Virus record (IMG/VR): IMGVR_UViG_3300027131_000001 | Length of the DNA: 64,000 nucleotides | Source of the DNA: a virus | Direction: 5' to 3' (one strand) | Shown here: in pieces, positions 3,709-32,842 of the stretch | Position numbering within the stretch: the stretch's first letter is position 1 | Layout of the letters: each line of letters begins with the position of its first letter | Position numbers and translations under genes: made by a program | The notes under the pieces: model-generated | Databases searched by the model: none | Told to the model about the DNA's origin: nothing | What the model saw: only the letters and a program-made list of their open reading frames with translations

Positions 3709-6700
3709 TTAAATAGACACTGCAAGTGCCCTCACATCTTTCATTATCGGTGGATTCTGAGTTGTACTTGATAATAAGACTACTTTGATTGCAAACACCT
3801 TATAACTTGAGTGACGTCCATTACTTGCATCAAAATATGTAACAATATTTGACTCTCTATTATATTTAAATGCAGCTTTTTTCTGCGTAACTTTTTCAAT
3901 TGAGCAAGCACCACTGAAAGAAGTATTTGACTTCAATGTTAAGTTAGTGGCGTTTGTAACAGCATCCACAACACCGATATCATAACTTGTCTCTGTATCA
4001 CTTTGAACAATTTTAATGATATCATTAGCTACCAAATCTGTATTAAACGCACTTCCAGAACCTGTTAATGTGGTAGTAGTTGCAGATGTTATAATACCAG
4101 CCAAAGCGGTTGATGGAGGAGTTCTAGGGAAGCTATATTCAAACTCAATATAATCTTTATCATTCAAAGAATCACTGAATAGGTTTGAGTTGTTTGAGGC
4201 ACTCATTAAGGTCCAGTCCTTATCTTTAAATACATCAGGATCATCAGAGCTTAGAATTTTTGAATATACTTGTATTGTAGATGTTGGTGGTTTATATGCT
4301 GTCAGGAATACTTTCATATCCTCAGCATCAAGACCCTCCGCCAATACTACGTTTTTAGAAATATATCTAACAGAAGCATTCCCATATCCTGTTGTTTCAT
4401 TTGTTGCACTGTTGTTAATAATATTATTAAAAGAGATAATTGATGCAGGGAACAAATCTACAGCAGGAGATAGTTTTGTCAATGCAGTATCATTACGAGC
4501 CATAGAAACGTTGAACTTTAATGATTTGTTATTGCTATTAGCAATTTCATTACTTCTAGATTTAACCTCGGCCTCGTATGCCATTTTATTAGTTACACCT
4601 TCAATAATATCTATACTTGAAGGGGCAGCACTTGCAGTCTGATCAACTGTCATAGTGTAACTTGTAGATGTTGTAGGAGGTGTTATATCTAATATATGCG
4701 CCTCTGCATAATTAACTACTATATCATCAACGCTAGATATAGTACTTGTTGCACCAGAGGCTTCTCCAATAATAGACTTATTTGCTTGAAATAAGAATGT
4801 GGTATTAGCTGCATTTGATTCTTCAAGAACAACGGTTTCATCGTTACCAACACTCGACATTACCGCTCTTACAACTTTCTGAACTCCAACAAAAACGGTT
4901 GAGTTATCAATTGCTTTACTTGGATAATCTTTAACAGTTATTGTTGAAGAGTTAGCAGCATTGATTCTTTGAACTTGGAAAGACTTTGATGCACCTTTGT
5001 GAGTATTAGCAGCAACAGCCCCAAGTAAAGGTGCATCAATAGTTAATGTCGTATTACTTGCAATTGCAGTAACCTCGCGTATTGAGGTATCAATTTTTAT
5101 ATAATCACCAACAGTATATTCAGTTTCAAAAACTGTAGTTGTACCGACTACAGTTGTGTTTGAAGCTAATACTGTAACAGTACCTGTTTTATTAGATGTC
5201 AGACTGTCACCATATACAAACAAACCATAATCGCCCACTGAGAATGTTCCTAGTAAAGATGTGCTTGTGTTTACTACCTGACTCGTGGTATTACAAGTGA
5301 ACGTAGCATTGATATATGTGTTTGATTTTTGTGCAATCTCTTCCCCACCCTGGAACGATCCGTACGTATTAGATACTGATAAAAACTCATACGGTTTATT
5401 TTCAAGGACCAATGTTCCGGTATTTTTTGTAAATTTTGCACAGTATATTGTAAATTTAACATCTTCCCTCTGTACTGGGGTCCAAGCTGTATCATTAGAT
5501 GATAGGAACATTACTCCTGCACCCCAATTACTTACATACACTAACGATGAGTCTGCAATATCAGGCATACCTACTTCCGCAGTCCATAATAGATAATTGG
5601 GATTGTTTTGATCAGGAATAATTACAAAACAATAGTCTTTACCTGAGCTTAGATATATTGGAGTGTCAAAGGTAACAGCTGTTACACTACTAGCAGTGTC
5701 ACTAGTATTGATAGAAGAGGACTTTAAATATCTAGATCCAAGTATTGCTGTTGCAGGATATCCATTATCAGTCTCCCTTATCTGAACTGTTGCACCTAAA
5801 GTAGAGTCCTTTGATTTAAAATATAAATCAAGCTTGGTTAGATAAACACCATGTGTACCGTCACTATTATCGATTCTGAAGGTCTGAGCAAGAGGATCGG
5901 TCCCACCTGCGCCAGCGCCTTTATTATGGACCACAAGACCGTTAGCAATGTAGGTATTATTACCATCCAATGTAAAGTTGTAAACCTGTAGGTCAGGATC
6001 ATTGATGTGTTCTGATATATCCACAATTTCCAATCCGACACGATCAACAGTTTCTATTACATCTCCTACTTGTAACTTACCAATATCCCATGTAGACAAC
6101 GCTTCATACTTCTTCTTTGTTGCCTCTGGATTAAATGATTTCCATGTACCATCTTTCATGTACACAGGATGATCATTTGTCATGAATGGAACACTACCGT
6201 TCAATGAGACTAGAGTTCTATCACCTAGTAAAGGCCTTATAAAATCAATAACAATATTAATAGAGTTATCTTTACCAATCAACTTATCGCCTATCTCAAC
6301 ATCTTCAATCGACTTTGTTGATCCATCAGCCAGCGTAATGGTAGTTCCTCTAATAAAACAACAACCCCGTGGCTGTGGAGCAGGAACAGTAATATTTCTT
6401 TGCTCTGTTCCAGCTCTGGTAGATATAGAAGTATTAGAAGAAGGAGTAAGCTGACCTGGAGTTTTGGTAGTAAGAGTTAGATCAGTTATATCTTTATAAA
6501 AATTAAAAGCATTGAAAACATTCTTACCAATTGAAATAGATTGATCTATATCATCATAATTTTGAACATCAGCTACAACAATATCACGCGATCCAACAAA
6601 AAACTGATTACTATTAATGTGGATCTCGCCAACTAGTGTTCCTGCGTCATCTGTTTTGAGAGTAGCTCCAAGAGCACCTGTAATAGTTGCATTTGTATCA

Positions 6701-30230: not shown

Positions 30231-30512
30231 TTACTTCTTGGCAGAAGTGTGAGATGTGTGCTTGGTCTCCGAAGGGAGGTTAGAAACGAATCCGTTCAAA
30301 GTCTGTGCTTTGCTTATGATATCGTGTTCTGTGGGATATGGCGGATAGGCTGGATGTTCTGGAATAGATTGTCCGTTCAGCTTAGCTGAATCAACCTTTA
30401 CATGCCAGTCCTCACTGAGTCGACTCTTTTCTGAGAAGTAAGAATCGGTTAGCATGTCCTTTGCCATTTTAAGAAGTTCGAGCCTGATCTCGAACGGGGT
30501 CATATTACTCAT
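30231..30512 (-). CDS. Conserved phage hypothetical protein
   Basis: MTPFEIRLELLKMAKDML..YP..II.KA..LNGFVS. Strong AAGGAG RBS. Confidence 0.75.
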   Translation of the reverse strand: MSNMTPFEIRLELLKMAKDMLTDSYFSEKSRLSEDWHVKVDSAKLNGQSIPEHPAYPPYPTEHDIISKAQTLNGFVSNLPSETKHTSHTSAKK

Positions 30513-30576: not shown

Positions 30577-30584
30577 TATTTATA
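30577..30584 (-). promoter_or_regulatory. T4-type late promoter
   Basis: TATAAATA on the minus strand, upstream of the 30512/SleB operon. Confidence 0.65.
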
Positions 30585-31146
30585 TAAACTGTGAAAGTTC
30601 AGCATAAGGCGCATTGAAACATAATTGTACGGCAAGTCTATGGTTGTTGTCAACTGGTACATATTTTGATAATCCAACTCGTGTATCATTTTTGATGGAT
30701 ACATCATGTGTAGTGGCAGTATCAAGCATCCACATTTCACCAGCAGCAGCACAGAAACTTTCTACTGGATACATTCGATCAACGTTAATTAAATTATAAC
30801 CAGCTCCATTATCTGTAGTTGATGTGTGATCTACAGTAACTAATCCTTCATAGAAAGTGGTAATTTCACCACCTACGTTGAGGTATATGTTTATGACAGT
30901 TTGCTCGTTAAGATGGATATGTGGAGCAAGTAATGTGAATTTATTTGCATCGATATGAAACAAATAGTCTTTTAATTTTTCCGGAAGAGAATGAGCTAGT
31001 AGGTCTTTGTCTTTTTTTCGAATATACAGGTGAGTAGAGGCAGGCTCACTCCATATAGGACTAACGAGATAACTTCCAAGTGATTTATTAGATACCCTGA
31101 TTTTACCAATATCTATCGGTAGATTTATCTGTCTAGCATACTTCAT
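30580..31146 (-). CDS. Cupin/2OG-Fe-oxygenase-like hypothetical, paralogue 2 (start re-called at 31146)
   Basis: LAPHIH..VINIY..GEITTFYEG..GEMWMLDTATTHDV..RLAVQL. Clearly paralogous to the upstream ORF. Confidence 0.65.
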   Translation of the reverse strand: MKYARQINLPIDIGKIRVSNKSLGSYLVSPIWSEPASTHLYIRKKDKDLLAHSLPEKLKDYLFHIDANKFTLLAPHIHLNEQTVINIYLNVGGEITTFYEGLVTVDHTSTTDNGAGYNLINVDRMYPVESFCAAAGEMWMLDTATTHDVSIKNDTRVGLSKYVPVDNNHRLAVQLCFNAPYAELSQFI

Positions 31147-31705
31147 TCTCAAACCATTGTAATAATTGCGCATAGGGAACATCAAAATACATCTGAATTA
31201 GCAATCTTTCCTGGTGATCAGAAGCAAAATATTTATCAATACCAGACCTTGAGTCCCCTTTTATTGTTACAGAGTGTGGCTGCGTGGTATCCATTATCCA
31301 CAAATCACCTTGCTCTGCACACAGTTGCTCGCAAGGAACAATTCCATCCAGCTTGATAACATGAAGATTACCACTATCGTTGTTTATACTATAATCGCGG
31401 ACTATATTGCCCTCATAAAAAGTAGTAACTTCTCCGTTAACTTTTTTATAGAAATTAATTACAGATTTCTCTTTTAGGTGTATATGTGGGGATAAAAGAG
31501 AGTATTTTGTAGCCAGAACAGATAAGAGATTTTTCTGGGCTTGAACTGGTAAAGCTGATTTAATTAAGCTGACGTCACTTTGCTTAATATAAAAAACATC
31601 AAACTTAGCAAGATTTTCGTTACTTGTAGTTAGTGTTTGAATTTTTCTGGTGATCTGAATGCTATCGAAATCAACAGGTAATTGTATCTTTTTAGCGTAC
31701 TTCAT
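31133..31705 (-). CDS. Cupin/2OG-Fe-oxygenase-like hypothetical, paralogue 1
   Basis: LSPHIH..VINFY..GEVTTFYEG..GDLWIMDTTQPHSV..RLLIQM. Confidence 0.65.
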   Translation of the reverse strand: MKYAKKIQLPVDFDSIQITRKIQTLTTSNENLAKFDVFYIKQSDVSLIKSALPVQAQKNLLSVLATKYSLLSPHIHLKEKSVINFYKKVNGEVTTFYEGNIVRDYSINNDSGNLHVIKLDGIVPCEQLCAEQGDLWIMDTTQPHSVTIKGDSRSGIDKYFASDHQERLLIQMYFDVPYAQLLQWFENEVC

Positions 31706-31910
31706 AATCGTTTACTCTACCCCATTCAATATTCAACCAAATTCTTTCATGGATGTAATAATCTATGCTTAGCAAAATATGGAGCGCTGTTGCAAACCCA
31801 GCGGCGCTTGTCATATTGCCAGTAAACAAGTATGTCCAAAAAATAGTGAAAAGCCATGCAGTTAAACGATATGTGATCATTCGCACTATTGTTCTTTTTT
31901 TAGTTTCCAT
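31692..31910 (-). CDS. DUF2061-like small membrane protein
   Basis: METKKRTIVRMITYR...YYIHERIW..IEWG pattern. Confidence 0.75.
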   Translation of the reverse strand: METKKRTIVRMITYRLTAWLFTIFWTYLFTGNMTSAAGFATALHILLSIDYYIHERIWLNIEWGRVNDYEVR

Positions 31911-31931
31911 TGTATATTCCAAGAAGTAGTT

Positions 31932-31970
31932 GGCTGGTTATTCGCTATACGGGAAACCAGCCAAAACCCT
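31932..31970 (-). other. Structured RNA hairpin module after pqqA (copy A)
   Basis: AGGGUUUU-GGCUGGUU...AACCAGCC. Homologous to the tmRNA 3' hairpin, with compensatory changes. Confidence 0.75.
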
Positions 31971-31979
31971 AGTAGTTAA

Positions 31980-32057
31980 TTATCTATTAGCAATATACAT
32001 GGTAATTTCAAAACCAAAACGCATATCTTGTGCTGCTGGAGTAGACCATTGTTTCAT
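31980..32057 (-). CDS. pqqA: Coenzyme PQQ precursor peptide PqqA (25 aa; absent from the ORF track)
   Basis: MKQWSTPAAQDMRFGFEITMYIANR* matches the PqqA consensus W..P...D.R.GFE.T.Y...R, including the E-x3-Y motif. GAGGA RBS. Confidence 0.93.
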   Translation of the reverse strand: MKQWSTPAAQDMRFGFEITMYIANR

Positions 32058-32093
32058 ATTATTTCCTCGAAAGCCGTTGCAAAAGTGCAACTG

Positions 32094-32124
32094 TATTATA
32101 TATTACACAACTGGTCTGGTTCAA
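32094..32124 (-). promoter_or_regulatory. Putative sigma70 promoter for pqqA
   Basis: TTGAAC-N18-TATAAT, followed by a 5' hairpin GTTGCA-CTTT-TGCAAC. Confidence 0.5.
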
Positions 32125-32164
32125 CTAGCGATTATCATTGATCTTCGTGCTGGTAATTATTCAT

Positions 32165-32430
32165 GGTAGGTTATTCTGTTACGAGGAAACCTACCGAAAC
32201 CCTAAGCAGTGTTTAGGCTGCTAATGCGAACTGTTCGTCGTTTGCGTTTACGTTTTTTGCTTGATTAACGGTCATCGCCTACCGTGCTGTCCACTTGTTT
32301 ACTTGTTGCCCTGTCGAAACCAATTCAGGCCCATCAGAAGTATACTAACACCAATATACTTTTGGTGGACCTGCCGGCATCGAAGCCGGGTCCAGAACAC
32401 TTTTCTCTTTGCTTCATACAGCAATAACTA
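32165..32430 (-). ncRNA. ssrA: Circularly permuted (two-piece) tmRNA with tag ANDEQFALAA
   Basis: The acceptor piece ends GAC-CCGGC-UUCGAU-GCCGG-CAGGUCC-ACCA (3' end 32363), followed by a 30-nt intervening hairpin. The coding piece starts GGGCCUG..UUCGAC at 32332, with a G3:U pair in the acceptor stem. Tag ORF at 32245-32213. Confidence 0.93.
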
Positions 32431-32431
32431 A

Positions 32432-32438
32432 TATTTAG
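32432..32438 (-). promoter_or_regulatory. Candidate late promoter for tmRNA
   Basis: CTAAATA directly upstream of the acceptor piece; a variant of the T4-like late consensus. Confidence 0.5.
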
Positions 32439-32842
32439 TCTGTTGCAATCTCAATATGACCAATTTTAATTATACCGTCCCAATCACGACCCTGGTCACT
32501 ACGACCACCTGAGCAAACAAACGGAGTATCGAACTCGTGAATATGTCCACCATCAAGTGTGTTCAGATCGAGTATATTAATATCCGATACCAAGATACAT
32601 CCAATTAAACCAGCATCTACGCCGTATTCGTTTTCAGCTTCGTCGTGGTAGCTACCATCACCCCACTTAGTATTGAATGATACGAACTTACGTCCGTCCT
32701 TCAATTCAAATAGGCCTTCGTTGCATCCGTGATCGTCACGGTCTTTGAAGAAGAGGCCGCACACCTCGTCCCATTCTTCATGCATCACATAGCACAAATC
32801 ACCAACCCAATACTTACCAGCAGGCAACCAATCTGTAATCAT
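32435..32842 (-). CDS. Conserved phage hypothetical protein
   Basis: LPAGKYWVGDLCYVM..TKWGDG.Y..VDAGLIGCI. Confidence 0.7.
   Translation of the reverse strand: MITDWLPAGKYWVGDLCYVMHEEWDEVCGLFFKDRDDHGCNEGLFELKDGRKFVSFNTKWGDGSYHDEAENEYGVDAGLIGCILVSDINILDLNTLDGGHIHEFDTPFVCSGGRSDQGRDWDGIIKIGHIEIATD

Follow-up and report, generated by a model that had tools for sequence, protein, structure and literature searches.

A tmRNA 3′-terminal hairpin, probably duplicated at the edges of small-gene cassettes, follows pqqA in a T4-like phage

In a stretch of viral DNA of 64,000 nt (IMG/VR record IMGVR_UViG_3300027131_000001; "the window" below always means this whole stretch), a gene for a circularly permuted transfer-messenger RNA (tmRNA) is followed by pqqA, which encodes a peptide precursor of pyrroloquinoline quinone (PQQ). 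The tmRNA coding piece and the pqqA open reading frame (ORF) are each trailed by a copy of the same 39-nt RNA module, and the question raised by the locus is why a ribosome-rescue RNA and a short peptide message should end alike. An earlier examination of the letters alone (the sequence-only reading) proposed that selection keeps one RNA structure on both and that the cofactor precursor is thereby coupled to ribosome-rescue RNA handling. Our analysis points elsewhere: we consider it fairly probable, from comparison of related contigs, that an element of the tmRNA 3′ end was duplicated at the boundaries of small-gene cassettes and reused behind pqqA as a plain 3′ hairpin.

The module and its place in the tmRNA

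Both copies lie on the minus strand, as do the window features within 30580–32472 given below, and each begins 9 nt after a UAA stop codon. The primary module (32165–32203) is the 3′-terminal hairpin of the tmRNA coding piece; it follows the stop of the tag (UAA 32215–32213) and consists of a lead AGGGUUUC, an 8-bp stem GGUAGGUU/AACCUACC, and a 15-nt loop UCCUCGUAACAGAAU. The secondary module (31932–31970) follows the pqqA stop (UAA 31982–31980) and has the lead AGGGUUUU, the stem GGCUGGUU/AACCAGCC, and a diverged loop, UCCCGUAUAGCGAAU. These positions and spacings were confirmed as first described, as was an ungapped identity of 27 of 39 positions, counted on the alignment; a separate alignment gave 71% over 41 nt. 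Two stem differences separate the copies, and both are compensatory (U-A/A-U versus C-G/U-A). Each copy folds to an 8-bp hairpin, at −12.4 kcal/mol (z −2.25) for the tmRNA copy and −16.0 kcal/mol (z −3.05) for the pqqA copy. The conserved tmRNA loop, UCCU(C/A)GUAACAGAAU, is matched in full by the tmRNA copy and at 7 of 15 positions by the pqqA copy when compared without gaps, or 12 with one shift. The absence of a proper U-tract, also remarked on earlier, was borne out by the sequence and by a terminator scan that reported neither module (what follows them is AUGAAUAA and AACUACUU); relatives of the L242 type (L numbers denote the contigs compared), unlike the window, do show a short loop with UUUUU.

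A degenerate pattern of the module had an expectation of 0.00 matches in 100 shuffles. A covariance model trained on tmRNA copies alone, with which the window was searched with filters off, scored the tmRNA copy at 72.4 bits and the pqqA copy at 38.7 bits (E 3.5e-8); these were the only two copies in the 64-kb window, and the next-best match reached 12 bits. Together, the shuffle expectation and the score of the pqqA copy rule out a chance match. The pqqA copy falls outside the Rfam tmRNA match and is thus not part of the tmRNA gene. Homology of the two copies, with the pqqA copy borrowed from the tmRNA 3′ end as the sequence-only reading had suggested, is therefore supported by a model that had seen tmRNA copies only. 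The earlier remark that each stop codon sits in the loop of a small helix-5-like hairpin held clearly for one of the two genes. In the tmRNA, helix 5 (AGCAG/CUGCU; 32204–32222) folds with the tag stop codon inside its 8-nt loop, and its arms carry matched differences among phage tmRNAs (judged by eye, uncounted); at pqqA the predicted hairpin is weak (−1.9 kcal/mol), and at the equivalent position in L241 and L250 the value is 0.0.

The tmRNA gene is of the circularly permuted, two-piece beta type (32122–32472; tag ANDEQFALAA). It was called by ARAGORN (32122–32454) and by Rfam, with RF01850 at 146.9 bits over 32151–32472 (threshold 84) and RF04321 at 141.1 bits. The tmRNA copy of the module aligns to the penultimate hairpin of the RF01850 model, with a similar loop consensus (gCCUUGuuACcaAAg in the beta model, RF01850; ACCuGGCAACAGAA in the alpha model, RF01849). 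In a degenerate-pattern scan of viral contigs, at least 119 carried the module, nearly all directly after the tag stop and helix 5. Counts of spacing and downstream context were made on non-redundant tmRNA copies from 110 phage contigs, a lower bound; the stop codon and the module were separated by 9 nt in 85 of these copies and by 6 nt in another 16. The 9-nt spacing stressed by the sequence-only reading is thus typical of tmRNA copies, but it varies between about 2 and 15 nt among the pqqA-linked ones.

The loop of the tmRNA copies reads UCCUCGUAACAGAAU, with UCCUAGUAACAGAAU as the variant of one subgroup, and the stem changes in matched fashion; L165 and L047 carry a wholly different stem (GACAGUUUA/UAAACUGUC) around an unchanged loop. 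The loop also occurs, with the stem GGGGGGU/ACCCCCC, in four alphaproteobacterial metagenome-assembled genomes (MAGs); in two of these the contigs concerned measure 731 and 921 kb. One alphaproteobacterial tmRNA checked against RF01849 scored 259 bits, and the consensus of that model ends in the module. Judged by these comparisons, the module is an old, conserved 3′-terminal domain of circularly permuted tmRNAs and is not peculiar to the pqqA locus.

The alpha-type tmRNAs of the alphaproteobacterial MAG contigs L251, L254, L256, and L257 (tag ANDNVASQD(F/H/Y)ALAA) share the loop UCCUAGUAACAGAAU with a phage subgroup tagged ANDNFAPQDFALAA. The Rfam alpha model shows the module region as unpaired, although a covarying hairpin forms there. 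Beta-type, phage-like tmRNAs were found in three contigs assigned to bacteria, L252 (Haliscomenobacter MAG), L255 (Alteromonadales MAG), and L253 (Bacteroidetes MAG); L252 and L255 also carry tRNA genes, and L253 has a downstream small gene as in the phage contigs. These three are probably phage contigs that were binned into bacterial MAGs.

The module could plausibly form a small H-type pseudoknot, in which AGGG of the lead would pair with UCCU at the start of the loop. Lead-loop pairing of 3–4 bp is possible in 38 of 41 distinct copies, and four copies (the L011 tmRNA, the pqqA copy of L118, L024, and L091) have a lead GAG or AAG together with a matching loop CUC or CUU. When the pairing was permuted, 528 of 2,000 shuffles did equally well, a control that fell short of significance because G·U pairs are tolerated.

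Distribution of the module behind pqqA and other genes

The window pqqA (31980–32057) encodes 25 amino acids behind a GAGGA ribosome-binding site and passes Pfam PF08042 at 35.2 bits (cutoff 21.1), with the PQQ-forming Glu-x3-Tyr core present as EITMY. One narrow DNA pattern of this conserved core recovered at least 119 viral contigs carrying pqqA (L120–L238), so that a stand-alone pqqA is very common in such contigs. Their 3′ flanks are assorted ordinary GC hairpins that carry T-runs and are unrelated to the module. When the module model was run on the first 100 of these contigs (826 kb), matches were obtained in L165 only and none lay after pqqA, the L165 matches being the tmRNA's own copy and a copy behind an endonuclease gene; the remaining 19 contigs gave no match. 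The pqqA genes of related phages thus mostly lack the module. In several of the contigs (L122, L139, L153, L221, and L222), pqqA adjoins large tRNA gene arrays.

Targeted scans for a pqqA C terminus followed by a module-like lead recovered 12 viral and 13 metagenome contigs, some of identical sequence, in most of which pqqA lies 25–130 nt behind the tmRNA module. The tmRNA-only model scored tmRNA copies at 61–73 bits and pqqA-linked copies at 19–60 bits. Module-like remnants trailed pqqA only when that gene occupied the slot behind a phage tmRNA or preceded whichever gene normally comes after the tmRNA, and they took three forms. In the first, represented by the window, L241, L247, L250, L260, L261, and L266, pqqA has its own promoter and a leader hairpin. 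In the second, named MKWSTP (L239, L240, L243, L245, L246, L248, L249, and others), pqqA sits about 25 nt past the tmRNA module with a ribosome-binding site only and is presumably co-transcribed with the tmRNA. In the third, MKNWTTP (L242, L262, L264, L268, and L269), the copy has turned into a short-loop hairpin with a U-run. On this distribution, the module is not a trait of pqqA.

Nor is pqqA the only gene in the slot, whose contents vary by contig between pqqA, a gene for a protein of 73–78 amino acids, a DUF2061 gene, an outer-membrane barrel gene, an endonuclease gene, or nothing; the module therefore also stands behind genes unrelated to pqqA. The 73–78 amino acid gene, a homologue of the window ORF at 30231–30512, ends in a copy in L054, L057, L065, L071, L112, and L117, and a gene for an outer-membrane beta-barrel-like protein does so in L017, L051, L091, L102, and L119. 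Positions 1–800 of L054 hold three successive units, tmRNA, the 78 amino acid gene, and DUF2061, with a module after each; the third copy has lost two loop bases. In the relatives, every extra copy shares the strand of the tmRNA and comes after it, in most cases at a distance of no more than about 0.6 kb. The copies relied on here are covariance-model matches and those directly after ORF stops; a looser lead-plus-hairpin heuristic was discarded, its reverse-strand controls having given 54 of 116 and 26 of 116.

A GIY-YIG-like endonuclease gene, on the reverse strand, is inserted at the tmRNA 3′ end in L011 (737–1243), L047 (7785–8174), and L165 (about 4440–4770), and occupies the slot at the edge of L033 and L041 as well. 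On its upstream side stands a complete tmRNA in which the tag end and the module stem are both variants; on its downstream side, a remnant with a pseudo-tag and helix 5 is left together with the canonical module. A Pfam match to GIY-YIG was obtained with the L011 ORF (22.8 bits, plus a weak NUMOD3 match), and Pfam found no GIY-YIG match in the shorter ORF in the L047 slot. The arrangement is suggestive of homing, with the conserved tmRNA 3′ end as the target and a donor allele that would be resistant to cleavage.

Cassette boundaries and the fate of the secondary copy

The window, L241, L250, and L247 were aligned to locate the edges of the pqqA unit. Homology runs from a box, AATGAT..TCG.TAGTTGAA, to the 3′ arm of the secondary module. 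Beyond its end the window continues into DUF2061, and L241, L250, and L247 into the ACAC-rich leader of the small gene noted above; upstream, the place of the window tmRNA is taken by a protein-coding gene in L247 and L250. These homology edges and differing flanks indicate that about 230 nt, bounded on the right by the module copy, were transferred as one unit. Within the unit, a sigma-70-like promoter (TTGAAC-18 nt-TATAAT; 32095–32124; 10 of 12 consensus matches) lies about 40 nt downstream of the tmRNA. It is followed by a small hairpin in the pqqA 5′ leader (GUUGCA CUUU UGCAAC; 32076–32091; −6.7 kcal/mol), which is also predicted at the equivalent place in L241, L247, L250, and L118. The box (window 32125–32146) runs into the −35 element of the promoter and is kept, together with that promoter, in L241, L247, and L250; it may be an upstream promoter (UP) element or a regulator site.

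Some 10–20 nt past the secondary module begins the gene for a DUF2061 membrane protein (31692–31922; Pfam PF09834, 26.5 bits). Beyond it, at 30580–31705, are two tandem paralogous ORFs of 190 and 201 amino acids that have no Pfam or PHROG match; the pair sits between DUF2061 and the small gene that directly follows tmRNA/pqqA in other phages. Baseplate genes place the contig among T4-like myoviruses, with merely about 39% protein identity to the nearest isolates, and a blastn search of the 1-kb region against GenBank phages gave no match.

In the reading we favor, small genes would be gained and lost particularly often in the slot just behind the tmRNA. Insertion of a gene would duplicate the module, through recombination between module copies or through repair after endonuclease cuts, so that the tmRNA and the new gene each end in a copy. 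The insert in the window would be the cassette of about 230 nt described above, comprising promoter, 5′ hairpin, ribosome-binding site, pqqA, and module copy. Of the two copies, the one in the tmRNA would lie within a longer transcript and there mark, protect, or form the 3′ end of the coding piece. That tmRNA is usually embedded in such a transcript is suggested by the 110 tmRNA copies, behind which the next start codon lies at a median of 26 nt and a sigma-70-like promoter intervenes in only 3. The secondary copy would be freed from the tmRNA-specific loop, keeping a stable stem and possibly a compact pseudoknot. The hairpin after bacterial pqqA ends, attenuates, or stabilizes the message, which would favor a short, abundant pqqA mRNA, and the secondary stem may likewise end, attenuate, or stabilize the short pqqA message of the phage.

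What became of the stem and the loop after duplication bears directly on this reading. Stem pairs were counted by script, in fixed register, over 17 distinct pqqA-linked copies: the 8-bp stem is perfect in 12, and 6 of the 8 pairs show changes on both sides. Orthologous secondary copies with covarying stems occur in L241, L250, L247, L260, L261, and L266, and within the window group the stem reads GGCUGGUU in the window, GGUUAGUU in L241, and GGUUGAUU in L247, with a G·U intermediate in L250. The 15-nt loop, near-invariant among tmRNA copies, is decayed or shrunken in most pqqA-linked copies; it is intact in L243, diverged in the window, L241, and L250, and reduced in others to as little as 7–8 nt. 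This pattern of substitution indicates that selection usually acts on the stem of a secondary copy but not on its tmRNA-type loop. The earlier proposal of selection on a shared RNA structure thus survives for the stem, kept by compensatory changes as would be expected of an element in 3′ stability, processing, or attenuation, but not for the loop.

Several points weigh against duplication and reuse as a plain hairpin. Stem retention is incomplete: 5 of the 17 copies have a U·U mismatch, two are further degraded, and several MKWSTP-type (second-group) copies with mismatched stems fold at just −2.8 to −5.6 kcal/mol; the hairpin is not kept everywhere, which for those lineages leans toward a passive relic. 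A plain hairpin role leaves unexplained why most decayed copies still have a G-rich lead and a loop that opens with pyrimidines. In L247, L250, L260, and L266, no tmRNA module was present in the inspected 200–300 nt upstream of the cassette, so that the module copy now travels with pqqA and its tmRNA origin is a reconstruction. The secondary copies of L054 and L065 are nearly identical to their primaries, which could reflect either recent duplication or gene conversion. The sequences show the homology of the two copies, where copies occur, the other genes carried in the slot, stem covariation, and loop decay; recombination as the duplicating mechanism, the RNA 3′ ends, any stabilizing or attenuating effect, and a role as a 3′-end structure are what we infer.

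The best placed of the alternatives, though in our judgment an unlikely one, is that the pqqA-linked copy is a mere footprint of insertion, functionless and decaying. Decay or shrinkage of the loop in most lineages, the mismatched copies with folding energies down to −2.8 kcal/mol, and a drop in model score from about 70 to 19–30 bits would all be expected of such a relic. However, neutral decay is disfavored by the maintenance of pairing through compensatory changes, including those between the window and L241, L250, and L247, in a set where 12 of 17 stems are perfect, and the window pqqA copy is predicted to be more stable than the tmRNA copy, not less.

Ranked next, and also improbable, is a punctuation role in which the tmRNA 3′ pseudoknot would be a portable end-forming signal, recognized wherever it stands by the nuclease or protein that matures the 3′ end of the two-piece tmRNA coding piece, so that a long early transcript would be cut into tmRNA, pqqA, and downstream mRNAs. 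The close spacing and rarity of promoters behind tmRNA modules fit such a signal, as do the second-group pqqA genes that follow the module with a ribosome-binding site only and the three gene-plus-module units in tandem in L054. Survival of the lead, (A/G)GGUUU, and of a YCC loop start in decayed copies also fits, together with the matched lead-loop changes in L011, L118, L024, and L091. On the other side, no recognizing factor is known; the loop, as the most conserved part and the likeliest recognition surface, is gone from most secondary copies; and the true lead-loop pairing was equaled by about a quarter of the shuffles (528 of 2,000). If punctuation did operate, phage mini-messages would be cut out much as tRNAs punctuate mitochondrial transcripts, and the persistence of lead and YCC after loss of the loop would be accounted for.

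The functional coupling put forward by the sequence-only reading, in which pqqA mRNA would carry a selected tmRNA-like 3′ domain tied to SmpB, S1, or tmRNA processing, is very unlikely. In its favor, the window copy has retained the lead and a loop of 15 nt and begins 9 nt after a stop codon that itself sits in a weak hairpin, and the pqqA-linked copy of L243 has an intact tmRNA-type loop. Against it, roughly 119 other phage pqqA genes have no module behind them and genes unrelated to pqqA do, both being outcomes that the sequence-only reading had itself named as refuting. Even the closest relatives do not conserve the loop, L241 and L250 have no stop-codon hairpin, and the spacing varies. The pqqA gene, moreover, is equipped with an ordinary ribosome-binding site and start codon, and in the window it is preceded by a promoter of its own. 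We found no support for a link between pqqA and ribosome rescue.

Least likely of all is duplication of an attachment site by a site-specific integrase, as for islands in bacterial ssrA 3′ ends. The 3′ ends of tmRNA genes are well known as integration sites and become duplicated when an element inserts (PMC11915505), and direct repeats of the gene's 3′ end do flank the insert here. The inserts, however, are of 230–500 nt and have no integrase, and the neighbors have no recombinase match in Pfam or PHROGs. The repeats have also diverged, and as many as three stand in a row, a pattern that fits recombination, homologous or illegitimate, or the repair of endonuclease cuts. Two further candidates were rejected outright: pqqA as a second tag template, given its own ribosome-binding site, ATG, and promoter, and a genome-wide terminator family, given only two copies in 64 kb.

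Meaning of the locus and comparison with known systems

If duplication and reuse as a 3′ hairpin is the right reading, a structural domain of an RNA gene would serve as a repeated boundary for the gain, loss, and swapping of small accessory genes in abundant, uncultured freshwater T4-like phages, and the genes exchanged there would include pqqA, membrane proteins, and a homing endonuclease. The idea that a PQQ precursor is tied to ribosome rescue is removed as unsupported. The comparison may also inform tmRNA itself: the terminal loop of permuted tmRNAs is nearly fixed across alpha-type, beta-type, and phage genes, and the naturally decayed copies would mark the parts needed only for the tmRNA.

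Among known systems, the primary copy in the window shares with the permuted tmRNAs of RF01850 and RF01849 its position, G-rich lead, covarying stem, and similar loop; the bacterial beta model has a final GC-rich hairpin that is missing from the phage genes. The secondary copy differs from that family in following a protein-coding ORF, outside the tmRNA gene, and in its diverged loop. Stand-alone pqqA has been reported as an auxiliary metabolic gene of T4-like freshwater phages for which Methylophilaceae were the predicted hosts (Coutinho et al., 2020, PMC7678222). The window pqqA is likewise stand-alone, but its hairpin appears to be borrowed from the tmRNA, whereas most phage pqqA genes have unrelated terminators. 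Elements that integrate into tRNA or tmRNA genes resemble this locus in that a direct repeat of the ssrA 3′ end brackets the insert and leaves the RNA gene intact; they differ in that the present inserts are very small and come with no integrase, the phage is of a lytic type, and the repeats diverge and accumulate in tandem.

The closest likeness is to the promoter early stem-loop (PeSL) cassettes of T4-type phages (Arbiol et al., 2010, PMC2839356; Comeau et al., 2014, PMC4122927), for which recombination between repeats has been proposed as a route of gene shuffling. In both cases the host genome is T4-like, a stem-loop and a sigma-70-like promoter stand between a stop codon and the next ribosome-binding site, and the repeats flank small accessory genes that vary between related genomes. 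The window has this layout in the order module (32165–32203), TTGAAC-18-TATAAT (10 of 12), GAGGA, and the pqqA ATG. Unlike the PeSL, which is a poly-G/poly-C stem overlapping the promoter, the tmRNA module comes from a domain of an RNA gene, and many of its copies have no promoter. PeSLs number about 50 per genome and are scattered over its hyperplastic regions, compared with two module copies in 64 kb, confined just downstream of the tmRNA. Phage genome plasticity of this sort is already known; what is new is a repeat that is derived from an RNA gene and restricted to a single locus.

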